A DNA stretch of 64,000 bases from Candidatus Latescibacterota bacterium (GCA_965203175.1 OZ241867.1:3712001-3776000); one strand, 5' to 3'; shown: positions 39,110 to 64,000, numbered from the stretch's first letter. Notes: generated by a model not told the origin, from the letters alone. Numbers and translations are program-made.

Positions 39110-40867
39110 ATGCCCTGGAATAGCGATAGCTTGTTGCAGCAACTCGAACTTGGTGAGGATAGCCGCGTCGAGTTCAAGGAAGCCGTATTTAGCGGCAACC
39201 GCGTCCGTGCGCCTCATCGGGACGCTATCGCCGACGAGTTGGCTGCTTTTGGCAATACCATCGGCGGCACATTGATCTTCAGTGTGTCCGACGCTGGTGA
39301 GGTGCGGTCGATGAACCGCGAACAGATGGATGCGCTGGAAACCTTCGTCGGCGAGGTTTGTTCGGACAGCATTCGTCCCCCGTTGGCATTTGTCACCCAA
39401 CGGTTGGCTCTGCCGGACGGTTCGTTTGTGCTAGTAGTCGAAGTCGAACAGAGCGCACTGGTCCACAGGAGTCCCGGAGGATACCTTTCCCGGCAAGGCA
39501 GTGCCAAGCGAGAGATGTCGTCGGAAGCATTAAACCGTCTGTTTCAGCAGCGGGGACGTTCTGGCCTACTTGGTCCTGACGAAGTAATCGTTGCCGGAAC
39601 TGGATCCAACACGCTCGACGAGACTCTAGCGGATCGTTTTCTGAGTTCGCGCGCCACCGAGCCCACAACAGTCCAACTTACAAAGCTGGGGTTGGTGCGG
39701 GAGGATGACAGCGGCGTGATCCGCGCAACGGTCGCCGGAGTGCTACTTTGCTCCGCACGCCCGGATGAGTACATACGCGGCGCGGTGATAGAAGCTGTTC
39801 GCTATCGCGGCACGGTACTCGGCAGTGCGAGCCAGCACGATGCGGCGTCCATCACCGGCCCGTTGGATCAGCAGATCCGCGATGCCGTCAACTTCGCTAG
39901 ACTCAATACGCGGGTAGCGGCGCGCAAGGCCCCTGGGCGAGTGGAGACCCCGCAGTTTAGTCCGCGAGCAGTATTCGAGGCTATCGTCAACGCTGTGGTA
40001 CACCGCGACTACTCGATAGAGAACGCGAAGATACGGCTCTTCATTTTTGACGACCGCCTTGAGTTGTACTCGCCGGGTGCTCTGCCCAACACACTGCCCA
40101 TTGAGGCCATGCGCAACCGACAAGCCACCCGCAACGAAACGCTCGCGTCCATCCTCCGTATGCTCGCGGTCGGGGATATCGCTGGTGCGGGTGATCGGCA
40201 GTATTTCTTGGAGCAACGCGGCGAAGGGGTTCCGATCATCTACGAGCAGACCCAAGAGTTGACAGGACGCGATCCAGAATACGAACTGCTCGGCGGCGTG
40301 GAACTGCGGCTGACGATACCTTCCGCCCGTCCGCCGGTAACGGGTATCGAAGGAGAAGTGTTGGTATCCGCCGCTGGTCAGCCGCTTGTCGGTGCACAGG
40401 TAGTTGCGCTGTATCCCAATAAGACTTGGATGGAGGGGGAAACCGATACGTTTGGCCGGGTCGCCTTTGGGTTTCACTCGGAACTTCCCATCACCATTTT
40501 CTGCGCGGCACCGGGACACGCCGCCCACGTGGAACGGGATTGGCACCCGCCGGAACAGCTCTCTGTACAGCTTGAACCGCTGCCGCTAGGTGGCTCGGCG
40601 GTGTTCACAGAACGGACCGGTCATTTGCCCAATTTGACCGGGCGGCTAAACCCAATCCTCGACAATCGCGACCGCATGTACCTTTACGCGACGAACGTCG
40701 CCATTGATGACGGCAAGCAGCAACCCGTTCACTTCAGACTGAATCAGCCCTTGCGGCTCACGGATGTCAACGGGTTTGAATGGATTGTGCGGTTCATTGA
40801 GATGATCGGGAAGTCGGCGCTGTTGGAATACGAACCCCCGTCCCACAGACAGGGGAACGATGAATAG
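39110..40867 (+). CDS. Schlafen/AlbA_2 + HATPase_c_4 protein with extra C-terminal beta domains
   Basis: GEDSRVEFKE, AFGNTIGGTL; EAIVNAVVHRDY, DRLELYSPG, RN, EQRGEG. Confidence 0.85.
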   Translation: MPWNSDSLLQQLELGEDSRVEFKEAVFSGNRVRAPHRDAIADELAAFGNTIGGTLIFSVSDAGEVRSMNREQMDALETFVGEVCSDSIRPPLAFVTQRLALPDGSFVLVVEVEQSALVHRSPGGYLSRQGSAKREMSSEALNRLFQQRGRSGLLGPDEVIVAGTGSNTLDETLADRFLSSRATEPTTVQLTKLGLVREDDSGVIRATVAGVLLCSARPDEYIRGAVIEAVRYRGTVLGSASQHDAASITGPLDQQIRDAVNFARLNTRVAARKAPGRVETPQFSPRAVFEAIVNAVVHRDYSIENAKIRLFIFDDRLELYSPGALPNTLPIEAMRNRQATRNETLASILRMLAVGDIAGAGDRQYFLEQRGEGVPIIYEQTQELTGRDPEYELLGGVELRLTIPSARPPVTGIEGEVLVSAAGQPLVGAQVVALYPNKTWMEGETDTFGRVAFGFHSELPITIFCAAPGHAAHVERDWHPPEQLSVQLEPLPLGGSAVFTERTGHLPNLTGRLNPILDNRDRMYLYATNVAIDDGKQQPVHFRLNQPLRLTDVNGFEWIVRFIEMIGKSALLEYEPPSHRQGNDE

Positions 40868-40946
40868 GGATGAAGTTCTAAACGTGCTCCGAACGCACAA
40901 GGCGACCCTTGTGCAACGCTTTGGTGTCACTGAATCGGGAATGTAG
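40860..40946 (+). pseudogene. truncated 5' remnant of an MNT (nucleotidyltransferase) antitoxin
   Basis: MNRDEVLNVLRTHKATLVQRFGVTE then SGM-stop, exactly where LxLFGS would follow in MntA-family proteins; overlaps upstream stop. Confidence 0.65.
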
Positions 40947-40959
40947 AAGGTGCATCGTT

Positions 40960-43900
40960 TTGACTGATCTATTCTTTGAACAGCCTGTCCTCAACTCGCC
41001 TTACGAGCGCCCGAGTCGGCATTGGGAACTGGACGAGACCGGACAGCCGACGCAGCAGATCGTTGAAAGCCGCCGACCGGCCGAGTTCGTCACGCCGATT
41101 CCGCAGCCGAAGAGGCGCAAGGGAGCCGCGCAACAGGTTAGTCTGGTGTTTGACGAGGCGGCGCAGAAGCTCGAAGCCGCCGGTCAGCAATACGACCTGA
41201 CGGCCATCATCAACGGGGTTCGCCAACAGGTTGACCGCTGGCGCGACCTGCCGAACCCGAGCCAATGGCAGGTGACCCCAGAGACGGCTCGTCTGCTCCA
41301 GCACTGGCGGCACCACCGCTTTAGTGGCATTCGGCCCTTCTTCTGCCAAGTCGAAGCAGTGGAGACCGCTATTTGGCTCAGCGAAGTTGCGCCTAACACG
41401 CGATCCGGCAGGGACTTCCTCGACCATCTGGAGGCCGCCAACAACAACGCCAATCCAGAACTGCCACTGCCACGATTGGCGCTCAAGTTGGCGACTGGCA
41501 CTGGCAAGACTACGGTCATGGCGATGTTGATCGCTTGGCAGACCGTCAATGCGGTGCGTCGGCCCCAGAGCCGCCGCTTCACGCGCGGTTTCTTGGTGGT
41601 CACGCCCGGCATCACCATCAAAGACCGTCTGCGCGTACTACAGCCGAACGACCCGGACAGTTACTATCAGAGCCGCGAGCTGGTTCCGAACGACATGCTG
41701 CCCGACTTGGAAAAGGCCAAGATTGTCATCACCAACTACCATGCCTTCAAGCTGCGCGAACGCATGGAGCTTTCCAAAGGTGGGCGTTCGTTGCTTCAGG
41801 GACGGGGCGAGACGCTGACGACTCTGGAGACCGAGGGGCAAATGCTGCAGCGGGTGATGCCCGAACTCATGGGTATGAAGAACGTCTTGATCCTCAACGA
41901 CGAGGCGCACCACTGCTATCGAGAAAAGCTGGGTGAGGGAGAGGAAGACGAACTCAAAGGAGATGACAGAAGGGAAGCGGAAAAGAACACGGAGGCGGCG
42001 CGGCTGTGGATTTCGGGGTTGGAAATTGTCGGCGACAAATTGGGCATCAACCGGGTGATGGACTTGTCGGCGACGCCTTTCTTTTTGCGCGGGTCGGGCT
42101 ATGCCGAAGGCACGTTGTTTCCTTGGACGATGTGCGATTTCTCGCTCATGGATGCGATAGAATGCGGTATCGTCAAACTGCCCCGCGTGCCGGTGGCCGA
42201 CAACATCCCCGGCGGCGAAATGCCGAGGTTTCGCAATCTCTGGGAACACATCCGTAGCGACATGCCTAAGAAGGGGCGGGGAAAGGCCAAGACCCTCGAT
42301 CCCCTCAGTTTGCCCTTGGATTTGCTGACCGCCCTAGACGCCCTGTACGGACATTATCAGAAAACTTTTGAGTTGATGGAGAAGAGGAAGGAAGACTATG
42401 AGGTCCCGCCGTGCTTCATCGTGGTCTGCAACAATACCTCGACCTCCAAGCTGGTGTACGACTACATCTCCGGCTTCCAGCGCGAGAACGACGATGGCTC
42501 GACGACGTTGGTAAACGGTCGCTTGGAACTGTTTCGCAATTTTGACGAGCAGGGCAATCAGTATCCACGGCCTCGCACGCTGTTGATCGACAGCGAACAA
42601 TTGGAGTCCGGCGACGCGCTCGATAGCAACTTTCGCAAAATGGCCTCCGACGAGATTGATCGCTTTCGGCGGGAGATTATCGAGCGCACTGGCGACCGGC
42701 GTCAGGCTGAGAACATCAGCGACCAAGAGTTGCTCCGCGAGGTTATGAACACTGTCGGTAAGCAGGGGCGGCTAGGGGATTCGATTCGCTGTGTGGTGTC
42801 GGTGTCGATGCTTACGGAGGGGTGGGATGCGAATACTGTCAGTCACGTGCTGGGCGTGCGCGCCTTTGGGACGCAGTTGCTCTGCGAGCAGGTCATTGGC
42901 CGGGCGCTGCGGCGGCAATCCTACGATCTCAACGAAGACGGCTTGTTCGATGTCGAGTACGCGGATGTCTTGGGCATTCCGTTTGACTTTACGGCCAAGC
43001 CCGTTGTGGCTTCGCCGAAGCAGCCGCGAGAGACTGTCCAGGTGCGAGCTGTGCGGCCCGAACGCGATGCACTGGAGATTCGTTTTCCCCGGGTGGCTGG
43101 ATATCGAGTGGAATTGCCGGAAGAGCAGCTCAAGGCCGAATTCAACAAGGACTCGGTGCTGGAACTGACGCCCGATCTTATTGGTCCGTCGATTACGAGG
43201 AATCAGGGGATTATCGGCGAGGGTGTTAATCTCAATCTGGTGCACACCAACGACCTTCGGACCTCGACCCTTCTGTTTCACCTGACTCAGCGGCTACTCT
43301 ACACCAAGTTCCGCGATCCGGGTGAAGAGCCTAAGCTCTATCTTTTCGGACAGCTCAAGCGCATCGCCAGACAGTGGCTCGATGGTTATCTCGACTGCAA
43401 GGGTGACACTTATCCCGCCCAACTTATGTATCAGGAACTGGCTGACACGGCCTGCGAGCGCATCTTTGCCGCTATCACGCGCGAAGGAATCGACCGTCGT
43501 CCGGTCAAAGCGGTACTCGATCCGTACAATCCCGTTGGCTCGACAGCCTACGTGAATTTCAACACGACCAAGGCTAGCCGCTGGCAGGCTGACCCTCGCC
43601 GTTGCCATATCAATTGGATCGTTCTCGACAGCGGCTGGGAAGAGGAGTTTTGCCGCGTTGCTGAAGCTCATCCGCACGTCAAAGCCTACGTCAAGAACCA
43701 CAATCTCGGCTTGGAAGTACCCTATCGTCTTGGGTCGGAAATGCGGACGTACCTTCCGGACTTTATCGTTCTCGTTGATGATGGCCGTGGTGACGATGAT
43801 CTTCTGAATTTGATCGTTGAGATCAAAGGAGAGCGAAGGGAAGACGCCAAGGCCAAGAAGACGACCATGGATACCTATTGGGTACCTGGTGTGAACAATC

Positions 43901-44001
43901 ACGGAGATTACGGGCGCTGGGCTTTTGCCGAATTCACCGATGTGTTCGGAATGGACGCCGAGTTCGCGCAGTTGGTTGAGGGGTTTCGGGCAGAGGGATA
44001 A
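40960..44001 (+). CDS. res: Type III restriction endonuclease Res subunit
   Basis: PFFCQVEA, KLATGTGKT, NDEAHH, LSATP, MLTEGWD, QVIGRALRR, PDF...VEIKG nuclease. Confidence 0.92.
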   Translation: MTDLFFEQPVLNSPYERPSRHWELDETGQPTQQIVESRRPAEFVTPIPQPKRRKGAAQQVSLVFDEAAQKLEAAGQQYDLTAIINGVRQQVDRWRDLPNPSQWQVTPETARLLQHWRHHRFSGIRPFFCQVEAVETAIWLSEVAPNTRSGRDFLDHLEAANNNANPELPLPRLALKLATGTGKTTVMAMLIAWQTVNAVRRPQSRRFTRGFLVVTPGITIKDRLRVLQPNDPDSYYQSRELVPNDMLPDLEKAKIVITNYHAFKLRERMELSKGGRSLLQGRGETLTTLETEGQMLQRVMPELMGMKNVLILNDEAHHCYREKLGEGEEDELKGDDRREAEKNTEAARLWISGLEIVGDKLGINRVMDLSATPFFLRGSGYAEGTLFPWTMCDFSLMDAIECGIVKLPRVPVADNIPGGEMPRFRNLWEHIRSDMPKKGRGKAKTLDPLSLPLDLLTALDALYGHYQKTFELMEKRKEDYEVPPCFIVVCNNTSTSKLVYDYISGFQRENDDGSTTLVNGRLELFRNFDEQGNQYPRPRTLLIDSEQLESGDALDSNFRKMASDEIDRFRREIIERTGDRRQAENISDQELLREVMNTVGKQGRLGDSIRCVVSVSMLTEGWDANTVSHVLGVRAFGTQLLCEQVIGRALRRQSYDLNEDGLFDVEYADVLGIPFDFTAKPVVASPKQPRETVQVRAVRPERDALEIRFPRVAGYRVELPEEQLKAEFNKDSVLELTPDLIGPSITRNQGIIGEGVNLNLVHTNDLRTSTLLFHLTQRLLYTKFRDPGEEPKLYLFGQLKRIARQWLDGYLDCKGDTYPAQLMYQELADTACERIFAAITREGIDRRPVKAVLDPYNPVGSTAYVNFNTTKASRWQADPRRCHINWIVLDSGWEEEFCRVAEAHPHVKAYVKNHNLGLEVPYRLGSEMRTYLPDFIVLVDDGRGDDDLLNLIVEIKGERREDAKAKKTTMDTYWVPGVNNHGDYGRWAFAEFTDVFGMDAEFAQLVEGFRAEG

Positions 44002-44081
44002 GGATCGAACATTGTATTGATAATGTATATACGCCATCGTAAGTTCGACGAACCTATATTAAGCCAGAGGTTACGTGAACC

Positions 44082-45245
44082 ATGACTAGCCGACGCTTGC
44101 AGATAACATTGCAACCTGAGGTCCTGCGGTGGGCGCGAGAGCGAGCAGGCTTTGAGCGTCCGGAACTGGCGCGCAAGCTGCAAGTGAGTCCAGAGCGCGT
44201 GCTGGAGTGGGAACGCAATGGCAAGATCAGTGTTGCACAGGCAGATAGACTCGCCCAACGCACTCATACCGCTCTGGGATTTCTGTACTTGACAGAGCCG
44301 CCCGAAGAACGCTTGCCAATACCCGACTTTCGCACCCGAGATGATGCTCCGCCTCCGAGTTCCGATCTACTTGAGACCATTTACCTTTTGCAGCGACGTC
44401 AGGCATGGATGCGCGATGAGCTTATCGAAGGCGGTGCTGAACCGCTGGATTTCATCGGAGCCTACAGCACGGATGCCCATCCTCGGCAAGTTGGGGCAGC
44501 CATGCGTGATGCGCTGCAGCTTACCGAAGATTGGGCGGAAGAGTTAGGTGCTTGGAGCGATGCGCTACGGCATCTGCGACACTCGGTTGACGTCGCCGGA
44601 GTTCTGGTGTCGTTCAATGGAGTGGTGGGTAATAACGCATATCGAAAGCTAAATCCTGATGAATTTCAGGGCTTCGCCCTCGTGGATGAGTATGCCTCGC
44701 TCGTCTTTGTGAATAGCGCCGATTTCATGGCGGCGCAGATGTTTACTCTGGCTCACGAACTGGCACACCTCTTCATAGCCCAGAGCGGTATCTCCAATTT
44801 AGAAGACTTACAACCGCCGTCGGATGAAATCGAGCAGTTCTGCAACAAGGCCGCTGCCGAATTTCTGATACCGGAAGAAGAGTTACGGGCTTTCTGGCCT
44901 AGTGCCCGACGAACGAATGATCCTTATCAGACTATCGCCTATAGGTTCAAGGTGAGTTCTATCGTGGCCGCGCGCCGGGCACTTGATCTCGATTTGATCG
45001 ACAGGGATGAGTTTCTCCGCTTCTACAACCAAAGGGTCGATGGATGGCGCAGCGATCAGCAGCGTCAGGGAAGTGGGGGCCACTTTTGGAATACTCAGAA
45101 GTGGCGTATCGGCCCTCGTTTTGCCTCTGCCATAGTTCGTGCGGTTGGAGAGGGTCGTTTGCCCTATCGCGAGGCGTACAATCTCACCGGTCTTAAGGGA
45201 GAAGCCTTTGAGAACATGCCGAAAAAGATGGAAATACCGCAGTGA
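44082..45245 (+). CDS. XRE-HTH + ImmA/IrrE metallopeptidase (M78)
   Basis: PEVLRWARE HTH, PDFRT, FQGFAL, FTLAHELAH, EQFCNKAAAEFL. Confidence 0.9.
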   Translation: MTSRRLQITLQPEVLRWARERAGFERPELARKLQVSPERVLEWERNGKISVAQADRLAQRTHTALGFLYLTEPPEERLPIPDFRTRDDAPPPSSDLLETIYLLQRRQAWMRDELIEGGAEPLDFIGAYSTDAHPRQVGAAMRDALQLTEDWAEELGAWSDALRHLRHSVDVAGVLVSFNGVVGNNAYRKLNPDEFQGFALVDEYASLVFVNSADFMAAQMFTLAHELAHLFIAQSGISNLEDLQPPSDEIEQFCNKAAAEFLIPEEELRAFWPSARRTNDPYQTIAYRFKVSSIVAARRALDLDLIDRDEFLRFYNQRVDGWRSDQQRQGSGGHFWNTQKWRIGPRFASAIVRAVGEGRLPYREAYNLTGLKGEAFENMPKKMEIPQ

Positions 45246-45286
45246 CGAACCCGCGCTTGGACAGAATCAAGAGGAGGAATAAGCTC

Positions 45287-45448
45287 ATGCAGCCAGACCC
45301 AATCGTCGAAGAGGTTCGTAAATCACGCGATGCGTATGCTAAGAGATTCAATTATGACCTAGATGCGATTTGCCGAGATTTACAAGAGAAGCAGAGGCTA
45401 GGCAAAAGAAGAGTGATTTCTTTGCCGCCCAAACGCCCAAAAAAGTGA
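45287..45448 (+). CDS. small DPIVEEVR-type protein (putative antitoxin usually paired with a PIN toxin)
   Basis: GAGGAGG SD; MQPDPIVEEVRKSRDAYAKRFNYDLDAI; paralogue at 52644. Confidence 0.65.
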   Translation: MQPDPIVEEVRKSRDAYAKRFNYDLDAICRDLQEKQRLGKRRVISLPPKRPKK

Positions 45449-45455
45449 GGAAGCC

Positions 45456-45862: not shown

Positions 45863-45898
45863 CTGAACCAATTTGTGACGGTAGAGGAATTGCAATCA

Positions 45899-48691
45899 AT
45901 GGCAAAACGAAAATCGACTAAGACTGTTGAAACCCTGCGGCACCAGGATGCATCGCGGAAGAATATTCCCACGGCTGAGTATCAGGCGGTGATGGCGGAG
46001 GACGACCGGAATCCGATTAGGGTCGCGTATGAGCGGCGCAATCGGGATCTCGATCCGCAGCTTGTTTGGCGGGGGAAGGATGAGCAGAACTGGTCGGATT
46101 TGGTGGTGCAAGCGCCGCCGCTGTTCATTCAGGAGAAGGTGCAGCCGAAGGTGTTGATTGACGATTTGCGGCAGCGGAGCAAGGAGACGGGGGACGGCGA
46201 AGCTAACTTGCAGACGGATTTGTTCGCGGATTTCAATGGGCTGCCGAGTGCGGACGCGCAGACGGAGTTTTACCAGCACGACGCCAACTGGTCGAATCGG
46301 ATGATCTTAGGCGATAGCTTGCAGGTGATGGCGTCGCTGGCCGAGCGGGAGGGGCTGCGCGGCAAGGTGCAGTGCATCTACATCGACCCGCCCTACGGCA
46401 TCAAGTTCAACTCCAACTTCCAGTGGTCAACAGAAAGTAACGTCGTAAGAGATGGGAATACGGATCACATTACCCGCGAGCCGGAACAGGTCAAGGCGTT
46501 TCGGGATACGTGGCGGGATGGGATCCATTCGTATTTGACGTATTTGCGGGATCGGCTGACGGTGGCGCGGGACTTGTTGACGGAGAGCGGGTCGGTCTTT
46601 GTGCAGATTGGGGAGGAGAATGTGCATCGGGTGCGGGCGTTGATGGATGAGGTGTTTGGGGAACAAAACTTCGTTACTGAGATTAAATTCAAAACGACAA
46701 GCAATCGAACATCTGAATTTGTACCTACGGTCTTTGATTCTATAATGTTATACGCTAAAGACCGAGACAATCTGAAGTTCCGTCGACAATTTCGATCTAA
46801 GGACTATGATGAAGTAACTGAAGACTCATACGGTTGCGTAGAGGAGTCGCCCAATTCTTGGAGAAGACTGACCAGATACGAAAAGGACAATCCAAGTCAA
46901 TCCGAGAAAATCGGACCGCTGTTCGGCTTGAGTGATCTAACTTCGTCTCACGAATATACAAGGGAACCATTCCACTGGTTTCACAAGTCATTCACTACAA
47001 GGCGACGTTACTGGTCGACTTCACATGATGGATTGACTCGTCTAGGTAGAGCTAATCGTCTCTGCGACGCTAACGGAACACTTCGATATAAGCGTTTCTT
47101 CAAAGACACATACGTTTTCGCACTGGACAATATCTGGCATGATCTAGGTAGCGGTTCTCAGACGGAAGAACGAACCTATGTTGTCCAGACGCTCTCGAAA
47201 GCCATCCAACGCTGCATCCTCATGACCACCGATCCCGGCGACCTCGTCCTCGACCCCACCTGCGGCTCCGGCACCACCGCGTACGTCGCCGAGCAGTGGG
47301 GCCGTCGCTGGATCACCATCGACACCTCCCGCGTCGCCCTCGCGCTCGCCCGCTCCCGCGTCATGGGAGCACGCTATCCCTACTACCTGCTCGCCGACAG
47401 TCGCGACGGCCAAATCAAAGAAGCCGAACTCGCCCGCAAAGCCCCCTCGGAGCAGTCCACGTACAACGACATCCGCCAAGGCTTCGTGTACGAGCGCGTC
47501 CCCCACATCACCCTCAAGTCCATCGCCAACAACGCCGAAATCGACGTAATCTATGAGAAATTCCAAGAAACGCTGGAGCCGCTGCGTCAGGAGTTGAACG
47601 ACGCACTAGGCACATCCTACGAGGAATGGGAAATCCCCCGCGACGCCGCCGACGCTTGGCCCGAGGAAGTCAAAAGAATTCACGCGGACTGGTGGGAACA
47701 GCGCATCGCCCGGCAGAAGGAAATCGACGCTTCCATCGCCGCCAAGGCCGACTACGAATACCTCTACGACAAGCCCTACGAAGACAACAAAAAAGTCCGC
47801 GTCGCCGGCCCGTTCACCGTAGAAAGCCTGTCGCCGCACCGCCTGTTAGGCGTCGATGAAAACGACGAACTCATCGACAACGTCGCCGAAGCCAAGTTAG
47901 GGTACGGCGAAAAGCAGGACTTCGCCGAGATGATCCTCGACAATCTCAAAACCTCCGGCGTCCAACAGGCGCACAAAGACGACCGCATCTCGTTTTCCGG
48001 GATCAGACCCTGGCCCGGCTACCACGTCTGCGCCGAAGGAACCTACGTCGAAGGCACCAGCGACTCGGGCGCTGAAAAACGCGCTGGCATCTTCGTCGGC
48101 CCGGAATTCGGCACCGTCTCCCGCCCCGATCTCGTCTCAGCGGTGCGCGAGGCCGCGGACGCCGACTTCGACGTGCTGGTCGCCTGCGCCTTCAACTACG
48201 ACGCCCACGCCTCGGAGTTCAACAAACTCGGCCGCGTCCCCGTCCTCAAGGCCCGCATGAACGCCGACCTCCACATGGCCGACGATCTCAAAAACACCGG
48301 CAAAGGCAACCTCTTCGTCATCTTCGGCGAACCAGACATCGACATCCTCGACGCGGAAGACAGCCAAATCCAAGTCAAGGTCAACGGCGTCGACGTATTC
48401 CACCCCAACACCGGCGAAATCCGCAGCGACAGCGCCGACGGCATCGCCTGCTGGTTCGTCGATACCGACTACAACGAGGAAAGCTTCTTCGTCCGCCACG
48501 CCTACTTCCTCGGTGCTAACGACCCGTACAAATCGCTGCGAACGACGCTCAAAACCGAGGTCAACCAAGAAGCCTGGGAAACCCTCCACAGAGACACCTC
48601 CCGACCTTTCGCCAAGCCGACGTCAGGCCGGATTGCGGTGAAGGTGATCAATCATTTGGGGGACGAGGTGATGAAGGTGTTTCGGGTGTGA
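45899..48691 (+). CDS. mod: Type III R-M methyltransferase Mod subunit (N6A)
   Basis: GDSL, YIDPPY catalytic motif, VLDPTCGSGTT SAM motif, long C-terminal region; ATG 45899. Confidence 0.93.
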   Translation: MAKRKSTKTVETLRHQDASRKNIPTAEYQAVMAEDDRNPIRVAYERRNRDLDPQLVWRGKDEQNWSDLVVQAPPLFIQEKVQPKVLIDDLRQRSKETGDGEANLQTDLFADFNGLPSADAQTEFYQHDANWSNRMILGDSLQVMASLAEREGLRGKVQCIYIDPPYGIKFNSNFQWSTESNVVRDGNTDHITREPEQVKAFRDTWRDGIHSYLTYLRDRLTVARDLLTESGSVFVQIGEENVHRVRALMDEVFGEQNFVTEIKFKTTSNRTSEFVPTVFDSIMLYAKDRDNLKFRRQFRSKDYDEVTEDSYGCVEESPNSWRRLTRYEKDNPSQSEKIGPLFGLSDLTSSHEYTREPFHWFHKSFTTRRRYWSTSHDGLTRLGRANRLCDANGTLRYKRFFKDTYVFALDNIWHDLGSGSQTEERTYVVQTLSKAIQRCILMTTDPGDLVLDPTCGSGTTAYVAEQWGRRWITIDTSRVALALARSRVMGARYPYYLLADSRDGQIKEAELARKAPSEQSTYNDIRQGFVYERVPHITLKSIANNAEIDVIYEKFQETLEPLRQELNDALGTSYEEWEIPRDAADAWPEEVKRIHADWWEQRIARQKEIDASIAAKADYEYLYDKPYEDNKKVRVAGPFTVESLSPHRLLGVDENDELIDNVAEAKLGYGEKQDFAEMILDNLKTSGVQQAHKDDRISFSGIRPWPGYHVCAEGTYVEGTSDSGAEKRAGIFVGPEFGTVSRPDLVSAVREAADADFDVLVACAFNYDAHASEFNKLGRVPVLKARMNADLHMADDLKNTGKGNLFVIFGEPDIDILDAEDSQIQVKVNGVDVFHPNTGEIRSDSADGIACWFVDTDYNEESFFVRHAYFLGANDPYKSLRTTLKTEVNQEAWETLHRDTSRPFAKPTSGRIAVKVINHLGDEVMKVFRV

Positions 48692-48721
48692 CTCCACCCT
48701 TACAAACTTGGGAGATACCTT

Positions 48722-49711: not shown

Positions 49712-49731
49712 CGGAAGGATTACGGCATCAA

Positions 49732-52333: not shown

Positions 52334-52552
52334 ATGAAAAAACAAACCATCCAATACGCTTCGCCCATCGACGCGCTGATTGCAGTGACCAAGCGGTTGA
52401 GTACCTACGAAAATCAACAACAGATGGATTCGGAAGAGTTCTTTGACCAGTACAGCCGGGGGCAACTATCCGACGACGCAGTATTCGTCGATTGGGCCAA
52501 TGACTACCGCCACTATTTGCAACTCCGTCAAAATGAAAGGGTATGCCCCTGA
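52334..52552 (+). CDS. TumA-like antitoxin (orphan)
   Basis: RLSTYENQQQMDSEEFFDQYSRGQLSDDAVFVDWA matches the YE..Y.M.S..F...G..GD..D..EW pattern of DUF6516/TumE partners. Confidence 0.6.
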   Translation: MKKQTIQYASPIDALIAVTKRLSTYENQQQMDSEEFFDQYSRGQLSDDAVFVDWANDYRHYLQLRQNERVCP

Positions 52553-52554: not shown

Positions 52555-52617
52555 AGCCTCCACAGCGATACCTCCCGGCCTTTCGCCAAGGCGACCTTTG
52601 GCCGGATTGTCATGAAA
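52555..52617 (+). repeat. diverged copy of mod 3' region (48581-48643)
   Basis: 51/63 nt identical by hand alignment; SLHSDTSRPFAKATFGRIVMK vs TLHRDTSRPFAKPTSGRIAVK. Confidence 0.9.
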
Positions 52618-52643: not shown

Positions 52644-52847
52644 ATGAAAAATGATCCTATCGTAGCTGAAGTTCTCGCAATACGAGACGAACTTGCCGCT
52701 CAGTGCGGCTACGACATCAAAGAGATCTTCCGGAAACTCCGGGAACAACAGGCCAAGTCGGGTCTGAAGTACGTACGCTACCCGGCCCGTCGAGTGGCTC
52801 TAGCCGAAGACGTACGAGTGCCCAACGCAGATAGAAAGACCGGATGA
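52644..52847 (+). CDS. small DPIVxEV-type putative antitoxin (orphan)
   Basis: AAGGA SD; MKNDPIVAEVLAIRDELAAQCGYDIKEI, similar to the 45287 ORF. Confidence 0.65.
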   Translation: MKNDPIVAEVLAIRDELAAQCGYDIKEIFRKLREQQAKSGLKYVRYPARRVALAEDVRVPNADRKTG

Positions 52848-52869: not shown

Positions 52870-53178
52870 ATGAAAAACATAACTCTGAGTGCCGACGAGC
52901 ATCTGATCGAAGCGGCGAACCAACGCGCCGCGGCAGAGCACACTACGCTGAACGAGCAGTTTCAACTGTGGCTCAAGCACTATGTTCAGCACGAGCAGCA
53001 GACGGGGTCCCACGAGATCCCGTCAGAGGCGCAAGGAACACTGGCGGACTTTTTCCAAGGGCATATTGGCATCCTGCACAGCAGTGAATACATGCCCGGC
53101 GGTGCTCGTATGTCGGTAGATAGCGACAAAAAGTTTGCGGCGGGACTGCTCAAAAAACGACAACAGGAGGAACGATGA
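52870..53178 (+). CDS. RHH/DUF6364-like antitoxin, probably chimeric (orphan)
   Basis: MKNITLSADEHLIEAA...TTLN RHH start; C-half TLADFFQGHIG...KKFAAGLLKKR resembles a VapB-type tail. Confidence 0.55.
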   Translation: MKNITLSADEHLIEAANQRAAAEHTTLNEQFQLWLKHYVQHEQQTGSHEIPSEAQGTLADFFQGHIGILHSSEYMPGGARMSVDSDKKFAAGLLKKRQQEER

Positions 53179-53202: not shown

Positions 53203-53238
53203 CTAGGAGACGAAGTGATGAAGGTGTTCCGGGTGTGA
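53203..53238 (+). repeat. diverged copy of last 12 codons of mod (48656-48691)
   Basis: 31/36 identical; all 5 differences synonymous (LGDEVMKVFRV*). Confidence 0.92.
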
Positions 53239-53289
53239 GGATTGGATAACGGTGATCGCTATCACTCACTTCCTACCGGGAATTCGAGT

Positions 53290-54984
53290 ATGAATTTCAA
53301 CACTGCCAACAGCACGTTTCGCCAGTTGATGGGCAATGGGCTGAGTTATCGCGTCCCGATGTTTCAGCGCGACTATTCTTGGGGCCCCGACGAATGGGAC
53401 GATCTGTGGCAGGATATCGTCGCCCTGTTCGATGAGGATCCGGAACCGGCTCACTACATGGGCTACCTAGTACTGCAATCAGCCGACAACAGGGCGTTTG
53501 AAATCATCGATGGACCGCAGCGCATGACCACGCTGAGCCTGTTGATGCTGGCGGCGGTGGCGCATCTGACGCACTTGGCCCGGCCGGATGATCCAGATGA
53601 CCCGCAACGTCGGCGCGCCGAGCAGCTACGCAGCAACTACATCGGCTATTTGGACTCGGTGAGCCTAGTATCTCGCTCCAAGCTGATGCTGAATCGGCAC
53701 AACGATAGCTTTTACCAGAACTACTTGGTGCCCCTAGAACGTCTGCCGCAAAGAGGATTGAACGCATCGGAACATCTGCTGCGCCGGGCCTTTCTCTGGT
53801 TCAGGGATCGCATTGAAGAACTAGCGGGCGATGACGGTCAGGCGGTAGCGCGCTTCGTCGATGGCGCAGTCGATAGGCTGTTTTTTACGATCATCACCGT
53901 GACCGACGAATTGAACGCCTTCAAGGTGTTCGAGACCCTGAACGCTCGCGGCGTGCGCTTGTCGGCCACTGATCTGCTGAAGAATTACTTGTTCTCAGTT
54001 GTCTCCCGCGGCAATCCGCACGAGTCGGAGATCAATGCCCTAGAAGACCGCTGGGAGGGTATCGTCGGGCTGCTGGGCAGTGAGATTTTTCCCGAGTTCC
54101 TGCGAGTCTTCTGGAACAGCCGCAACAGGCTGGTGCGCAAGGCGGACTTGTTCAAAGTCATTCGCGACGCCATTCGCGACCGATCCGCAGCATTCGAGCT
54201 GATCCGCGACATGGACAGGAGCGCCCGCGTGTACGCGGCCTTGCGCAGCCCGGAGGAGGGTGCTTGGACGGCGGCGGAACGCGACAGCCTAGCCCAATTG
54301 CAGATGTTCAACGTGCGCCAGCCCCTAGCGGTGTTACTGGCGGCATTTGAGCGATTCGAGGAAAACGACCGCGGCGGCTTTGGACGCTTTCTGAAGGCAA
54401 TCGCGGTAGTGTCGTTTCGCTATAACGTGATCTGTAGCCGTCAGAGCAACGAGCAGGAGGTCGTGTACAACCAAGTTGCCCGCGGGATTTCGTCAGGCCG
54501 GATTGGCGGCGCGGCTGCGGCGATTGCGGAACTGCGGCCAGTCTATCCCGAGGACGCGGAATTCAGGGCGGCGTTTACAGACAAGGCGCTGCGAACGACC
54601 AGCCACCGCAATAGTAAGGTCGTGCGCTTTATACTGTTTCGTCTGGAAGCGCAGCTATCGGGGCAGCGCTTTGAGTTCGAGAGCGCAAAATATGGGATTG
54701 AGCACGTGTTGCCGGAAAATCCGGGCGATGCGTGGCAACAGTTTGACGACCAGCAGCGGGAGGCTTCTACCTACCGCTTGGGGAACATGACCTTGCTGAC
54801 GGCCGAGGCAAACCGCGATCTGGGAAATTCGGGATATGCCCAGAAACGGCCGGTTTACCAAGAGAGCAGCTTTGCAATAACGCGCAAGCTATCAGAAGAC
54901 TTCGATACTTGGACCGTGGAGAAGATTCGCACCCACCAAGCCTGGATGGCAAAACAAGCTACCGGCATCTGGCGAATCGGCTAG
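53290..54984 (+). CDS. GmrSD-like DUF262-DUF1524 (HNH) protein
   Basis: VPMFQRDYSW, IIDGPQR, FETLNARG, IEHVLP...LGNMTLL..N; ATG 53290. Confidence 0.9.
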   Translation: MNFNTANSTFRQLMGNGLSYRVPMFQRDYSWGPDEWDDLWQDIVALFDEDPEPAHYMGYLVLQSADNRAFEIIDGPQRMTTLSLLMLAAVAHLTHLARPDDPDDPQRRRAEQLRSNYIGYLDSVSLVSRSKLMLNRHNDSFYQNYLVPLERLPQRGLNASEHLLRRAFLWFRDRIEELAGDDGQAVARFVDGAVDRLFFTIITVTDELNAFKVFETLNARGVRLSATDLLKNYLFSVVSRGNPHESEINALEDRWEGIVGLLGSEIFPEFLRVFWNSRNRLVRKADLFKVIRDAIRDRSAAFELIRDMDRSARVYAALRSPEEGAWTAAERDSLAQLQMFNVRQPLAVLLAAFERFEENDRGGFGRFLKAIAVVSFRYNVICSRQSNEQEVVYNQVARGISSGRIGGAAAAIAELRPVYPEDAEFRAAFTDKALRTTSHRNSKVVRFILFRLEAQLSGQRFEFESAKYGIEHVLPENPGDAWQQFDDQQREASTYRLGNMTLLTAEANRDLGNSGYAQKRPVYQESSFAITRKLSEDFDTWTVEKIRTHQAWMAKQATGIWRIG

Positions 54985-55007
54985 CTCGTCGCCGTGTAGG
55001 CCTTCCT

Positions 55008-56306
55008 TTATTGGTCCGGGTCGGTCGGGGTGTTGGGGTTGTTCAAGCGCTCTTGGTCGGCGTAGGGGTAGAAATCGCGATTGCGTTCAAACATATCGGT
55101 CGAAGGGCCAGGTTGCCCCAAGCGCCGACTGTCTTCCCAGCCGGTGCCGTGCAGAAAAAGCTCGGCTCGCCGCTGGCGAAAAATTTCGTTCAACACCGCT
55201 TCAAGTGACTGCGGGCCGCTGTACGGCGGCAGCGCAGCCCCCACGCCAAAAGGATCCTCGGCCGGCGTTTTGGTGCGCACGGCGTCGATTTCAGCGATGG
55301 CCGCGTCGATGTTGCCCAACATGACGTGGGCCTCGGCGCGCGTCAGGGCCATTTCTCCGGGCAGGTAGGCCGGAATAGGCGACGTGGCCGAGTGCCAAAA
55401 GCCGGTCAAATCCTCAATGGGAAAGTCGTTGGGGTTGCTGGTCCGCTCACTCGGCGTGGTGTAAAAGGCCAGCCGCGCATCGCCGCTTTCGGTGCTGCTC
55501 AGGCCAAAGTGGTCGCGCGGGGCGTAATCGTCCGCCACGACGACCTGCGCGTACAGGGGATTCTCGTTTTCCGCGTCGTACGTATAGACTGAGGTCGCTG
55601 TCGGATCGACGGCATCGGCGTCGTCGAGCGCTGCTTGGTAGTTGCCGGTAAATAAGTGGTAGCGCGCTCGATAGGCGCGTATGGTGTTGAGCAGATCAAA
55701 ACCCTCGCCCAATATGTCTGCGTTGAACTCGTCGGATGGTGGCGTGGAAGTGGCGGTTTCGAGGGCGCGGTCCAACGAGCGAATTGCTGCGGCGAAAAGC
55801 TCTTCACGCGGCCTAAATGGCGCTTGCCCATCGGCCTGCACGTCTAGGGGCGCGTGGGCAAAAGCCTGCGCGACGAATCCCAAGCACTTGGCTTTGTACA
55901 AATGCGCCAGTGCTACAATGTCGCTGCGCGTTCCCTCAGCCAGCGGTACCTCGGGCGCGTTGGCGATCAAGTCGTTGGCCATGCCCATGATGCGGTAGGA
56001 GTTAGACCAGATACTATGCACGCCGCTGTTAGCTCCCGTCAGGGAGCCAAGGCCGTCTTCTAGTTCGATAAGATTGGAAAACGTCGTATTGGCTGCTAGC
56101 TCGCGGCTGGTGATGGCCGGATGGCGCACGTACGCATCGACGTTGTTACTGGCGTAGCTGCGCTGTATGCCAATGGCCAGCGCTTTGATGCCGTCGCTGG
56201 TGGTCAACACCTGCTCTTCGAACGCTTGGTTGGGATTGGCTACGTTCAAATCGCAACCCCAAAGCAGCCCACCGACTATAAGTAGCCCACAAAAAGTCGC
56301 TTTCAT
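55008..56306 (-). CDS. susD: RagB/SusD-family outer membrane lipoprotein
   Basis: Lipobox LWGC, WSNSY, EMALTRAEA, RRAELFLHG, ERLNNPN. Confidence 0.87.
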   Translation of the reverse strand: MKATFCGLLIVGGLLWGCDLNVANPNQAFEEQVLTTSDGIKALAIGIQRSYASNNVDAYVRHPAITSRELAANTTFSNLIELEDGLGSLTGANSGVHSIWSNSYRIMGMANDLIANAPEVPLAEGTRSDIVALAHLYKAKCLGFVAQAFAHAPLDVQADGQAPFRPREELFAAAIRSLDRALETATSTPPSDEFNADILGEGFDLLNTIRAYRARYHLFTGNYQAALDDADAVDPTATSVYTYDAENENPLYAQVVVADDYAPRDHFGLSSTESGDARLAFYTTPSERTSNPNDFPIEDLTGFWHSATSPIPAYLPGEMALTRAEAHVMLGNIDAAIAEIDAVRTKTPAEDPFGVGAALPPYSGPQSLEAVLNEIFRQRRAELFLHGTGWEDSRRLGQPGPSTDMFERNRDFYPYADQERLNNPNTPTDPDQ

Positions 56307-56328
56307 CGTCTTGCTTGTCCTCGGTTGC

Positions 56329-59232: not shown

Positions 59233-59237
59233 GGTCC

Positions 59238-61158
<1,921 letters not shown>

Positions 61159-61166
<8 letters not shown>

Positions 61167-61254
61167 TGTTTTTTTCTCCTTTAGGGAATTGGCGATCCGA
61201 TTCTTCTCCGTTGGGATCGGTGGTTAGAATGAGGGTGAATTCGTGTAGTTTCAT
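61159..61254 (-). pseudogene. truncated copy of the 5' end of the 62151-62411 gene
   Basis: [21 protein letters not shown] vs [21 protein letters not shown]; 61193-61257 vs 62350-62414 55/65 identical. Confidence 0.85.
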
Positions 61255-61272
61255 GGTGCGTTCACTGCTCGT

Positions 61273-62037
61273 TCAGGCTGCTAGTTCCTTCCGTACCGCC
61301 TCGCGCTGGCTCCACATGATCGGCTTTACATCATAGCTTCGCAACGCTTCTAGCGTGTCCAGAGGCACTGTCTGTGCCGAGTCATTTAGCAGCGCATAGG
61401 CACGCGATTCGGGAGTGCGGATTTCCTTCGTGTCAACCCATGCGAGAACCACGGTCTGAGCGGTGGCGCGATTGGGTCGATTGATTGTCTGAATGATGCG
61501 CTCCGGTTGTTGCCGCGACTTCGGAATTACGAGATCGAACAGGTGGTCGTAGCCGGTCGTTCCGGTAAATTTCACTTTGGGCGTGTGCCTAATGTCGTTC
61601 GCATCGAACCAAGCAACCACATCCTCGTAAAACAGGCTCGTCACCACAGGCACAGCCAGATAGAACATATCATTAACGGCGAGCATTGCCTGCACGAGGT
61701 TGTGTTTGCGCGAAGCAAAGTTCCCCTCCGAGGCATGGATTTGCAACGCCTTGTCATCTTGCTTCACGCCAAAACCATTAAGCGTCATCTTGAGAAGTGC
61801 TTGTCGCTTGCGGCTGTCGAGCTTGCAGCCGCTTTGCTGCAAGTCATCTATAGTGTACCCATCGTCCGTTAGTAAGAATCCTCCGTTGGTCTTCTTGACG
61901 TATATCTGCACATAGTCGTTGTGGCGATCGAGGTAGGGCGTTGTGATTTCGACCCATTGGTCCAATTGGTGTAGTTCTGTCTTGTCCTTGAGCCAATCGT
62001 AATAGGTAGTGAGCAGATTCTGAATGTCTTGAATCAT
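61273..62037 (-). CDS. DUF1828/DUF1829 domain protein
   Basis: [46 protein letters not shown]; native ATG 62037. Confidence 0.8.
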
Positions 62038-62151
62038 GCGAGCCCCCGGTTGATATAGGGGGGTGAAGTCGGTCTGCTCATCTGTTGCGCGGTGTTTTTC
62101 CATTGCGATTAAGGCGTCTGCCTCTGCTTGAGTCAGGTTGATGTCTGCCAC
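62034..62151 (-). pseudogene. internally deleted DUF6978-like gene
   Basis: N-terminus [23 protein letters not shown] joined out of frame to C-terminus PPYINRGLA* whose TGA overlaps the downstream ATG. Confidence 0.65.
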
Positions 62152-62411
62152 TATGTGATCGCGCTCGGTTTTGCGGTGAAAACTTGTAGCGGTTCAATTT
62201 TCACACGGACCACATCAAAGCCTGCTTTTCTGACCTGCGCCAGCGCAGAACTGATGGCTTCCTCCAACGACGGGGCTTCTCGGTGAAAGTGAACCTGCGG
62301 CACGCCAGCCATCGAGACAAGCGTACCATCATTGAAGATGCTGTAGAGACGATCCGATTCTTCTTCGTTGGGATCGGCTGTTAAAATAAGTGTGAATTCA
62401 TGCACTCTCAT
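62151..62411 (-). CDS. small antitoxin-like protein (HicB-like fold, orphan)
   Basis: HEFTLIL...[23 protein letters not shown]; GAGGA SD. Confidence 0.55.
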
Positions 62412-62436
62412 GGTAAGTTCCTCTGGCGAAGTACTC

Positions 62437-62649
62437 TTATGCTGCGACTTCGATATAAGCGGACTTCGCAGATGGCTGCGGTATGGGGAATCCCTCCTCC
62501 TTCAGGCCCTCGACATGAAACGCGATCGCTTCCTTCATATTCGCTTCGGTTTCTTCTTCCGTAGCACCTGTCGCTACACAACCTAAGAGATCCGGCGAGT
62601 ACGCTGAGAAGCCTGTCTCGGTCTTTTCCACGACGATTAGGTATTTCAT
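62437..62649 (-). CDS. hicB: HicB antitoxin
   Basis: GFSAYSPDLLGCVATGATEEE...EAIAFHVEGL. Confidence 0.92.
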   Translation of the reverse strand: MKYLIVVEKTETGFSAYSPDLLGCVATGATEEETEANMKEAIAFHVEGLKEEGFPIPQPSAKSAYIEVAA

Positions 62650-62834
62650 TCTTTTAACCCTGCTTTCTTCAATATGCTGTTAAGAGTACCAATAGCCAGA
62701 TCGTCACCCAAACGTCCGGGCACCGTTATCAGCTCTCGCTTGGCGGGGTGCTTGAATTGCCGATGACTTCCACGCATCCTGACTTGGTACCAGCCGTCCC
62801 TTTCGAGCATTCGCACCACCTCTCGGACCTTCAT
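62646..62834 (-). CDS. hicA: HicA toxin
   Basis: LERDGWYQVRMRGSHRQFKHP...TVPG..GTLNSILKKAGL. Confidence 0.92.
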   Translation of the reverse strand: MKVREVVRMLERDGWYQVRMRGSHRQFKHPAKRELITVPGRLGDDLAIGTLNSILKKAGLKE

Positions 62835-62934
62835 AAATAATAAAGATTTCTCTCAATAGGCTCTATTTTGATACTTATATATCTGAGTGCCCAAAAACCA
62901 TTCAACTCATTGAGGACGTTATAGTTATGTCTAT

Positions 62935-63034
62935 AAAGATAGGGAATTATATACTTGACCAAGCATAGATTGCCTAACCGTTTGTATTTTAGGAAGTTTA
63001 TATAAAATAGTTAAGCATATAATTTCCTATCTTT
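62935..63034. repeat. 25-bp imperfect inverted repeat in AT-rich spacer
   Basis: AAAGATAGGGAATTATATACTTGAC (62935-59) vs reverse complement of 63010-34, 22/25 identical. Confidence 0.8.
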
Positions 63035-63980
63035 GGCGTGGCCTGACCTGACCCTTCTGAAGTCCGGATACAACTCGAAGGTCCTCCATCTCTTGATCCG
63101 ATACCTTAGAGCCACAGATGATCTCGTCCAAGCTCAGAGTGTAGAACTGATTCTTGAACGGTACGGCAATGAATTCTCGGATTACCTGACCTTGATCGCC
63201 CTTTGTCTCTTTGATGGGAAACACATTCATAAGGCCTTGATAGAGCCTGTAGTCAAAAGTGATGCGGGTCTCGGTCTCCCAATCGTACATTTTTCGCTTG
63301 TAGAACCGGGCGAATTTGTCTACGCCGTCAATGATGAGCTCCCTATCGAACTCTTGACGAAACGCATCTCTGATGCTCTTGATGAAGGAGAAGCGCTGGC
63401 CATCGTCGTAGACGACATCTCTCAAGTCCCAGCATTCCGCGGTATTCACATCAACCTTCGACAGCCGCAAACACAAGCAAACCCCTTTGTCACAAGCTGC
63501 ATACTCAGTCCAGAACCTTTCAATCTCAGACTTACTGGTTAAACACAACACAAACAGTTTTCGCTTGTAATCATCAATCTTGTCACCATCAATTCTGTCC
63601 TCCGAGTAACCGCAAAGGCGAATGAACTCCGAGTACTCAGCATGGTCGTTGGCCTCGAAGTACTTCATGGCTGTGAACTGCAGGGCCTTCTTCTCAACAG
63701 ACTTGAGGGCATAGTCGTACTTGAGGAAGTGATAGAAGAGGACCTGATCCTCCTGCCTTCTGTCTCGAGCGGTTGACGAGAATGCATTCAAGAGCGTGTC
63801 TCGCCCATCCGAAACAGTTGACATCAGCCAGACAAACTTGCCACGGTCATCCTCACAGAAGTCGTCTGGCCGCAAAGTGCCGACAACCGAAGCGAACTCA
63901 CTTCCTCTGAGACTGCTGTTCACGATCTCTGCCATGCGTTGGCGTTGAGCATCGGTGAATCTATTGGCCGGTTCCTCCAT
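63027..63980 (-). CDS. DUF2971-like protein (possibly 5'-truncated by window)
   Basis: FYHF, ND..E, LCLT, FWTEYA...GVCL, VVY, YKRKMYDWETETR, EIICG; frame stays open to 64000. Confidence 0.65.
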   Translation of the reverse strand: MEEPANRFTDAQRQRMAEIVNSSLRGSEFASVVGTLRPDDFCEDDRGKFVWLMSTVSDGRDTLLNAFSSTARDRRQEDQVLFYHFLKYDYALKSVEKKALQFTAMKYFEANDHAEYSEFIRLCGYSEDRIDGDKIDDYKRKLFVLCLTSKSEIERFWTEYAACDKGVCLCLRLSKVDVNTAECWDLRDVVYDDGQRFSFIKSIRDAFRQEFDRELIIDGVDKFARFYKRKMYDWETETRITFDYRLYQGLMNVFPIKETKGDQGQVIREFIAVPFKNQFYTLSLDEIICGSKVSDQEMEDLRVVSGLQKGQVRPRQR

Positions 63981-64000
63981 GAGCTTGATGATTTCACGGT

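Follow-up and report, generated by a model that had tools for sequence, protein, structure and literature searches.

How does a defence locus exchange its gene cassettes when no integrase, transposase or tRNA gene lies among them? This question is raised by a 64-kb stretch of the genome of a Candidatus Latescibacterota bacterium (GCA_965203175.1 OZ241867.1:3712001-3776000; hereafter the window, whose positions give all coordinates below), in which anti-phage systems and small antitoxin-like genes accompany a restriction-modification (R-M) operon consisting of a restriction gene, res, and a methyltransferase gene, mod. An initial annotation of the window had proposed that defence cassettes are gained and lost here by homology-anchored recombination with incoming alleles, building an integron-like array. 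We compared the genome that holds the window, a single contig of 6.58 Mb (G000), with 14 close relatives for which the locus region was fetched (15 genomes including G000) and with distant members of the genus. Our conclusion, to which we give a probability of about 0.68, is that the partial gene copies found in this locus, here called stubs, are scars of one-sided, homology-anchored insertions that displaced older cassettes sequentially.

Neither the border tRNA or tmRNA gene nor the integrase of a tRNA-targeted island was found in the window (0 tRNA/tmRNA genes), and no open reading frame (ORF) between 36.9 and 64 kb holds an integrase, transposase or recombinase domain. In this respect the initial annotation, which had described two variable clusters devoid of integrase, transposase and tRNA, was right. 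The genome encodes four tyrosine recombinases (PF00589), the nearest of them ~199 kb from the window, and no serine recombinase was found in it. The islands of the 14 close relatives contain two DDE transposases, both in G023, and no other mobility gene was seen there. Between 36 and 64 kb we found 14 inverted-repeat pairs of 26-29 nt that are 70-81% complementary and look chance-like, although no attC covariance model was used, and 0 of the 14 lies at a cassette junction.

The locus is a pair of integrase-free defence hotspots flanking dnaK (59238..61166, minus strand; Pfam HSP70, 916 bits), one reaching from dnaK to the alcohol dehydrogenase gene adh and the other from dnaK to uvrB. The Zn-dependent alcohol dehydrogenase forms the left core anchor together with a hypothetical gene (36921..38980, plus strand; Pfam ADH_N and ADH_zinc_N). 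Its nucleotide identity is 87-93% across the 14 close relatives; in distant members of the genus, where adh abuts dnaK, it is 73-76%. The gap between the two genes is 65-147 bp in the distant genomes G015, G016, G017 and G024, which represent the empty site, and 8-21 kb in the 13 close relatives that have both genes on one stretch. In another close relative, G013, adh and dnaK lie ~1.1 Mb apart, the locus having been split by a rearrangement. Across the genus, dnaK was found in 29/31 genomes. The dnaK-uvrB interval is nearly empty in G003, G005, G009, G015, G016 and G024, and in the distant genomes with the region fetched (G015, G016 and G024) the two genes are a few hundred bp apart. The second cluster, annotated initially as 61.2-64 kb, is a real hotspot but runs up to uvrB, which starts ~390 nt past the end of the window.

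The true anchors are adh, dnaK and uvrB. The initial annotation had also expected susD to be an anchor, and had predicted that adh-res-mod and susD/dnaK would be conserved in relatives; adh, res, mod and dnaK are indeed kept, but susD is not. The susCD pair (SusD, 55008-56390, and SusC, 56329-59232, both on the minus strand and assigned by Pfam) is itself a cassette inserted at the 3′ end of dnaK. It is located here in 6/15 close genomes with the region fetched, G000 included, and in G021, G022 and G023 a dnaK 3′ stub borders its far side, beside susD.

The larger hotspot, between adh and dnaK, is built on a conserved Type III-like res-mod operon. Res (40909..44001, plus strand) combines a helicase with a C-terminal nuclease (Pfam ResIII and RE_endonuc) and scores 1363.7 bits against NCBIfam NF046055 (cut-off 800); Mod (45875..48691, plus strand; Pfam N6_N4_Mtase) scores 1380.7 bits against the PADLOC model MTase_III PDLC03632. 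The pair is predicted to be a Type III-like R-M system with a BPTD_3080-family restriction endonuclease and an N6/N4 DNA methyltransferase, the latter being our anchor gene and the single member of its family in the genome. Both res and mod are kept in 15/15 genomes, at 84-99% nucleotide identity in the 14 close relatives. The slots around them are highly variable, with 7 distinct contents among the 15 genomes for adh|res, 15 for res|mod, 14 for mod|dnaK and 10 for dnaK|uvrB, as judged from crude greedy ORF calls in the relatives. Relatives thus carry different cassettes, as had been predicted, and neither identical content among them nor a recombinase with att sites was found.

Between mod and susD the cassette genes are all co-oriented with mod (6/6). 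Directly behind mod stand IetA, an AAA ATPase (48722-49711, plus strand; PADLOC IetA, 243 bits), and IetS, an S8 protease (49732-52305, plus strand; PADLOC IetS, 142 bits), followed by an orphan gene for the antitoxin TumA (52334..52552, plus strand; NCBIfam NF045776, 129.8 bits against a cut-off of 100). Two small antitoxin-like ORFs, ORF67 (52644-52847) and ORF102 (52870-53178), both on the plus strand, come next. The most mod-distal cassette on this side of susCD is the type IV restriction enzyme GmrSD/HEC-06 (53242..54984, plus strand; Pfam GmrSD_N and GmrSD_C; PADLOC HEC-06, 742.6 bits). Within the genus, IetA-IetS is common only to G000 and G023. At 20 loci outside the genus, IetAS was found behind mod in 7 and GmrSD in 5. 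Other cassettes found behind mod are Dsr2, SIR2-HerA, DRT UG5-nitrilase, PDC-M66AB and a Ppl-like ATPase with a Schlafen-like gene, and GajB-like helicases and Cas4-like nucleases stand behind mod in L028, L034, L039 and L043.

Self-BLAST of the whole window returned five non-self matches, three of them inside the region studied here, and these three partial gene copies are the sole significant repeats in this part of the window. Two derive from the last 109 nt of mod, whose end is at 48691. Stub 1 (52557..52616, plus strand) corresponds to mod positions -109 to about -50 and has a decayed tail; 48583-48635 matches 52557-52609 at 86.8% over 53 nt (E 1.7e-10), and a second comparison gave 83% over 60 nt. 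Stub 2 (53206..53238, plus strand) repeats the last 33 nt of mod including the stop codon (48659-48691; 90.9%, E 4.5e-5). The third copy lies in the second cluster, where 61193-61263 matches 62350-62420 at 83.1% over 71 nt (E 9e-14), spanning the first 21 codons of ORF86 (62151-62411, minus strand; 86 aa) and 9 nt upstream. The mod 3′ end matches at its own place and at the two stubs, and nowhere else in the whole 6.58-Mb genome. The initial annotation had read such copies as marks of cassette junctions. All three repeats are real, although their identities are 83-91% rather than the 81-86% given there.

That these partial copies mark old junctions is supported by the relatives. The spacer found behind intact mod in G012 and G022 still links stub 1 to ORF67, which suggests that stub 1 is the decayed end of a mod gene that formerly stood there; ORF67 and ORF102 come straight after mod in G011, G012 and G022. 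Stub 2 is continuous with the GmrSD leader and matches the intact mod-GmrSD junction of G004, where GmrSD follows mod directly; GmrSD is present in G011 as well. The mod|IetA junction of G000 is common to G023, and IetA of G116 and G031 is immediately preceded by a stub and has the leader found in G035a and G115, where the mod|IetA junction is intact. Support for the junctions comes from the closed assembly of G000 and from their occurrence in assemblies of other species. The expectation that each cassette would begin at a mod 3′ copy holds for the older cassettes but not for each one.

The clearest regularity emerges when stubs are compared across the phylum, in which we found the mod family in 62/168 genomes at E <= 1e-50. 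Each whole mod was searched against its own flanks on both strands at 35 loci, 15 in the genus and 20 outside it. All mod pieces downstream of mod are co-oriented with it (24/24), and 19/24 reach within 7 nt of the mod end; five do not, namely stub 1 of G000, single pieces in G138 and in the rearranged G009 (the latter a 5′ piece), and two pieces from inside the gene in G132, of which one belongs to a longer gapped stub. Upstream of mod, 6/7 pieces are co-oriented, the seventh being a 23-nt match at E 1.8e-4, and 5/7 start within the first 30 nt of mod. The inner (left) edges of the stubs are spread from -23 to -1009 nt relative to the mod end. A downstream piece is present at 5/15 loci in the genus (that of G009 being the 5′ part of mod) and at 10/20 outside it, and G132 stacks at least three stubs, which separate PDC-S15/ORF67/TumA/Dsr2, a PD-T4-4-like ATPase, a GmrSD fragment and HEC-01A. 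The same holds for res, which has 5′ stubs on its upstream side in G007 and a 3′ stub on its downstream side in G093, and four further genes match the pattern in all (dnaK, res, ORF86 and MNT, a nucleotidyltransferase antitoxin gene). Terminal pieces of matching polarity on each side would not be expected from random decay of duplicated genes, and inner edges spread over 1 kb would not be expected from a site-specific process.

We propose that new cassettes enter right beside conserved gene ends, with the mod 3′ end as the chief entry point. Incoming DNA would recombine by homology within the conserved gene on one side and, on its far side, join illegitimately at microhomology within the copy of that gene already present in the recipient. 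The end of this resident copy would then stay behind as a co-oriented stub, and the older cassettes would be pushed outward. In G000 the stubs keep old mod junctions, to GmrSD and to ORF67, and we therefore infer that GmrSD came first, then ORF67-ORF102 and then IetAS-TumA. A mod-GmrSD arrangement would have left stub 2 and GmrSD as its relic; a mod-ORF67-ORF102 arrangement, laid over it, would have left stub 1 with ORF67 and ORF102; and the mod-IetA-IetS-TumA arrangement would have arrived last, with deletions in addition. A stub on the far side of a cassette could also act as a second homology arm, so that a double crossover would copy the cassette into any mod-bearing genome. The same logic would apply to the dnaK 3′ stubs beside susCD, to the res and mod 5′ stubs on the upstream side and, if a further deletion is allowed, to the 5′ stub of ORF86.

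One junction appears to preserve the illegitimate join itself. G011 and G012 both have a 217-nt ORF67 cassette with the intact end of mod on one side and a 23-nt stub on the other; in G011 a direct repeat of 38 nt (3 mismatches) brackets the cassette. The uninterrupted form of this repeat site is found in G000 as stub 2 and the GmrSD leader and, apart from a small deletion, in G004. In both G011 and G012 the right junction of the cassette falls in GATGAAG, a 7-mer common to the mod end and to the ORF67-ORF102 spacer of the G000/G022-type arrangement, a coincidence that we read as the signature of a microhomology join.

A second set of junctions bears on the possible reuse of stubs. The left junction between Dsr2 and the stub behind it is identical in G002, G022, G132 and G138, which belong to three genera, while the stub tails and the DNA beyond them are lineage-specific and carry variants also seen in each genome's resident mod. 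This pattern would be expected from a double crossover with mod or an upstream cassette as its left arm and the stub as its right arm. Dsr2 is 82-88% identical at the nucleotide level between these genera and Res 82-86%, and a recent transfer of Dsr2 between genera, which we considered, is unsupported for that reason. TumA stands immediately upstream of Dsr2 in the same four genomes (G132 at L027, G138 at L044) and may act as a regulator of Dsr2 or as an antitoxin-like partner to it, in either case outside the usual description of that system. In G000 Dsr2 is absent; TumA has lost its partner and also its 3′ end, its sequence departing from that of relatives beyond about 52533 (comparison with G138).

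The mod gene itself also carries signs of exchange. Its centre, about 46672-47175, is replaced between species, while both flanks are 91-99% identical, as expected for the recognition domain; this points to allelic exchange of that domain. G000 and G011 share a mod allele (96.7% over the whole gene). Between G000 and its nine nearest species, divergence at fourfold sites is 0.03-0.12 for mod, against 0.13-0.22 for adh, 0.15-0.26 for res and 0.12-0.16 for dnaK. The mod values are about half those of adh and res, which fits more recent exchange. Homology-anchored gain and loss, as put forward in the initial annotation, is favoured by the polarity, the one microhomology junction, the shared Dsr2|stub junction and the synonymous divergence of mod; what does not stand is the idea of a system. 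This is a process rather than a dedicated system, such as ordinary RecA recombination and rare illegitimate joins produce.

Displacement is visible less cleanly in the second cluster, which lies between dnaK and uvrB and has its genes on the minus strand. ORF86 stands directly before dnaK in G019 and G023, and the order ORF86-DUF6978-DUF1828/9-stub-dnaK is found in G002, G012 and G021; G022 has the same order minus an intact ORF86. G000 follows the order of G021, with DUF6978 cut to aa 1-29 of 148 and fused to DUF1828/9, giving an ORF that joins DUF6978 residues 1-29 to DUF1828/DUF1829 (PDC-M24B; 61273-62151, minus strand; Pfam, PADLOC and tblastn). The segment 61273..62411 is therefore a defective three-gene module whose intact form is seen in G002, G012, G021 and G022. 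The stub of ORF86 (61193..61263, minus strand), which we found in those four genomes as well, comprises the first 21 codons, which run directly into the dnaK leader; this points to an older ORF86 copy that was displaced and afterwards lost its 3′ part. Other forms of ORF86 erosion occur in G004, G007 and G010, and the ORF86 case supports displacement plus decay, less cleanly than that of mod. Truncation and deletion scars, which the initial annotation had also noted, are confirmed in G000 by the DUF6978 fusion, by a 5′ stub of MNT at 40860-40934 and by the TumA gene without its 3′ end.

Several observations weigh against sequential displacement as the general route. The slot contents come from crude gene calls. 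At E <= 1e-3, 10/15 loci in the genus and 10/20 outside it are without a stub, so that simple replacement by double crossover, or deletion, may account for most of the turnover. One junction alone, GATGAAG in G011 and G012, was traced to microhomology. Since Dsr2 is as diverged as Res between genera, the Dsr2|stub junction could equally well be an old one passed down vertically, the stub having undergone recombination or conversion afterwards. The lower synonymous divergence of mod is absent in five more distant species and could come from constraint. The ORF86 stub is a 5′ piece downstream of its cassette, needs an extra deletion and fits less neatly. Finally, the last 54 nt of mod are no diversity outlier along the gene, and nothing marks them as a special site.

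These points lend some weight to plain decay, in which the stubs would be debris of tandem duplications or locus replacements followed by deletions, with homology at gene ends having no role in the arrival of cassettes, which would enter by double crossover in the core flanks (adh, dnaK, uvrB) or by unrelated illegitimate events. Scars of deletion, namely the DUF6978 fusion, the MNT stub and the truncated TumA, are frequent in this locus, ORF86 has been eroded in several ways in relatives, and 20/35 loci have no downstream mod piece. Conserved-flank replacement is moreover the usual view of integrase-free hotspots in the passages of PMC12707154 and PMC10250203 that treat them. Yet random deletion would leave internal, 5′ and 3′ pieces alike, and the pieces seen are 3′-terminal in 19/24 cases downstream and 5′-terminal in 5/7 cases upstream. 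Decay alone would also have to account for stubs that retain allele-specific junctions to the next cassette, and for a left Dsr2|stub junction that is identical in three genera where the stub tails differ. We regard plain decay as unlikely, though it deserves to be kept in mind.

Far less probable is site-specific insertion, by which an unrecognised recombinase, or the R-M enzymes themselves, would target a site in the 3′ end of mod, the stubs being att-like duplications brought in by the arriving elements. Elements that integrate at the 3′ ends of genes usually bring a replacement end, which would suit this explanation, as would the concentration of insertions at the extreme end of mod, the short stretch conserved beyond the stop codon in several genomes and the co-orientation of the cassettes with mod. 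Left edges of stubs ranging from -23 to -1009 nt are hard to reconcile with a fixed target, and the same polarity is seen at dnaK, res, ORF86 and MNT. Nor were the expected parts found: there is no tyrosine recombinase within ~199 kb and no serine recombinase, the relatives' islands hold only the two DDE transposases of G023, and there are no inverted repeats at the junctions. A chimeric or collapsed assembly of strain variants is scarcely credible. The organism seemingly comes from community samples with related strains: two sequencing runs, probably its source, hold 90-95% of the sampled words, and several others, some of them labelled sponge or marine metagenome, hold 30-56%. But the genome is a single 6.58-Mb contig, copies that are 83-91% identical are too diverged for collapsed repeats, and the junctions recur in independent assemblies (G023 has mod|IetA and stub 1, G004 and G011 have stub 2|GmrSD, and four species have the ORF86 stub).

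Sequential displacement beside conserved gene ends accordingly remains our preferred account, and the remaining features of the window can be set beside it. The gene that follows adh had been annotated as res; it is in fact a Schlafen/AlbA_2 gene with a HATPase_c_4 domain (39110..40867, plus strand; Pfam), and Res is the next large ORF (40909-44001). The Schlafen/AlbA_2 gene is a movable module, standing upstream of res in G000 and downstream of it in G019, G005 and G004. Between the two lies the MNT 5′ stub (40860..40934, plus strand), ~24 codons that match the relatives' MNT at 82-85% over 26-28 aa by tblastn; the full-length MNT gene (Pfam NTP_transf_2) is located just upstream of mod in relatives. 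Homology to the relatives' Res begins at 40937-40956, and the real start of Res probably lies near 40960. The res|mod slot of G000 contains a cassette with a helix-turn-helix domain and an M78 peptidase (RmrA/ImmA-like; 44082..45245, plus strand; Pfam, and RmrA/capP in PADLOC), which was found in 7/15 genomes, followed by a 68-aa paralogue of ORF67 (45242..45448, plus strand; clustering with the ORF67 family c13). No Pfam family was found for ORF67 or this paralogue, and for ORF67 and ORF102 neither a Pfam nor an NCBIfam family. All three recur directly before or behind mod in many relatives and resemble orphan antitoxins or regulators.

The second cluster continues beyond ORF86 with the toxin-antitoxin pair HicB (62437-62649) and HicA (62646-62834), both on the minus strand and identified by Pfam, which occurs in G011, G001 and G007 as well. 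It is followed by a DUF2971-like gene (63027..63980, minus strand) with a weak PDC-S31 match, unique to G000 among the compared genomes. HicA and this gene are separated by a 190-nt AT-rich spacer of promoter-like composition (62835-63026), and the GC content over 62-64 kb is 0.48-0.49 compared with 0.60-0.64 in the core. The strand skew reported initially for the flanks proved weak, the GC skew being mostly positive and negative only at 47-49 kb (mod and IetA) and 62-64 kb. Likewise, the nearby addAB genes offer nothing beyond their position, and the ORFs at 29970-36772 match the AddA and AddB models below the cut-offs. Two more short direct repeats (30-33 nt, 88-93% identical) at 28536-29084 fall within a 743-aa ORF (27708-29939, minus strand), which is probably a repeat-containing protein. 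Two candidate features of the mod end were rejected. A recurrent breakpoint 54 nt before the stop codon turned out to be an artefact of uneven conservation, as the stubs extend upstream at lower identity, and a special conservation of the last 54 nt was dropped, as this segment is no outlier in sliding-window diversity and holds only 6 fourfold sites.

The mod family is also found on plasmids, in 18 records at ~70% nucleotide identity, and the res-mod pair is annotated on plasmids of Proteobacteria. Two records that we inspected (L046 and L047; Pseudomonas and Rhizobium) encode the BPTD_3080 endonuclease together with its methylase and contain a single match to mod apiece, in the order res, one or two small genes, mod and then a UvrD-like helicase or an exonuclease. 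The helicase behind mod may be part of an extended form of the R-M system. In viral contigs, a narrow exact-match search for a 20-nt mod-end motif gave 0 matches and thus no hint of stub-tagged cassettes on viruses. We tentatively suggest, as an idea that is rather doubtful at present, that the mod 3′ end is a portable homology tag, that defence cassettes move about with a mod 3′ stub on their far side and can be copied by ordinary RecA recombination to a place behind any mod of this R-M system, and that the R-M operon is an integrase-free, integron-like platform across the whole phylum. Possibly this extends to plasmids of other phyla that carry the same operon, and the addictive nature of R-M systems might enforce retention of the operon.

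Mechanisms of this kind are known from other loci. The orphan arrays of Rhs, contact-dependent inhibition (CDI) and type VI secretion system (T6SS) loci have been explained by homology-facilitated illegitimate recombination, and the comparison with integrons is made there too, in the parts of that paper relevant here (Kirchberger 2017, PMC5361080, which cites Jackson 2009). Our locus resembles these Rhs/CdiA/T6SS arrays of sequential (C-terminal) displacement in having a conserved upstream homology anchor with the newest module adjacent to it and older ones pushed downstream, leftover 3′ pieces of the anchor and no integrase. It also shows the features expected of sequential displacement there, with mod in 15/15 genomes against 14 mod|dnaK contents, and co-oriented terminal stubs with variable inner edges. 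It differs in that the anchor is an intact R-M methyltransferase gene rather than a toxin gene with an exchanged tip, in that what is displaced is not immunity genes but entire anti-phage systems and antitoxin-like genes, and in that the polarity recurs at dnaK and 5′ of mod and res.

R-M loci themselves have been described, in sections of Furuta 2010 (PMC2853133; see also Nobusato 2000), as insertions with long target duplications. Such inserts share with our cassettes the lack of mobility genes, direct repeats of >30 bp with one copy at the empty site and a frequent overlap with the 3′ end of a gene, and the 217-nt ORF67 cassette of G011 carries a repeat of just this type (38 nt, 3 mismatches). 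There, however, the R-M system is the insert, whereas here it is the target and the inserts are IetAS, Dsr2, GmrSD, ORFs resembling toxin-antitoxin genes and others; the repeats here also reach 1 kb and are stacked into arrays.

Among defence hotspots, the immigration control region of E. coli is an integrase-free one between core genes, according to the relevant part of PMC12707154, and at cDHS1 and cDHS2 of P. aeruginosa many occupied sites (29% and 47%) are without any mobile-element gene, according to that of PMC10250203. Like these, our locus has variable defence content between core genes, and exchange by homologous recombination is proposed in those passages. The same passages describe neither an internal anchor gene nor junction scars, whereas here a resident R-M operon splits the hotspot into slots and the stubs record the order of events. 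The integron-like array of the initial annotation is apt insofar as co-oriented cassettes (6/6) stand behind a fixed platform with the newest next to mod, and read-through from the platform would be possible; it is not apt as to mechanism, since neither an IntI adjoining the array, attC-like inverted repeats at cassette boundaries nor a fixed recombination point was found. Literature searches, from which subscription journals were mostly absent, returned no account of defence cassettes that follow one another behind an R-M methylase gene with stubs of that gene as their boundaries, and no paper with the term 'BPTD_3080'. The kind of mechanism is thus known from Rhs/CDI/T6SS loci and from R-M long target duplications, but it is apparently undescribed for mod-anchored defence islands.

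How hotspots without mobile-element genes are built has been called an important future area in the discussion of such sites in PMC10250203. This locus and its counterparts in relatives provide a readable record of such assembly, in which the stubs delimit cassettes, give their order of arrival and point to homology in R-M genes as the route of entry. If this is general, the model would be directly testable, and cassette boundaries would be predictable from stubs, which would aid the discovery of new defence genes. R-M operons would then be landing pads for other defence systems besides being defence systems in their own right.

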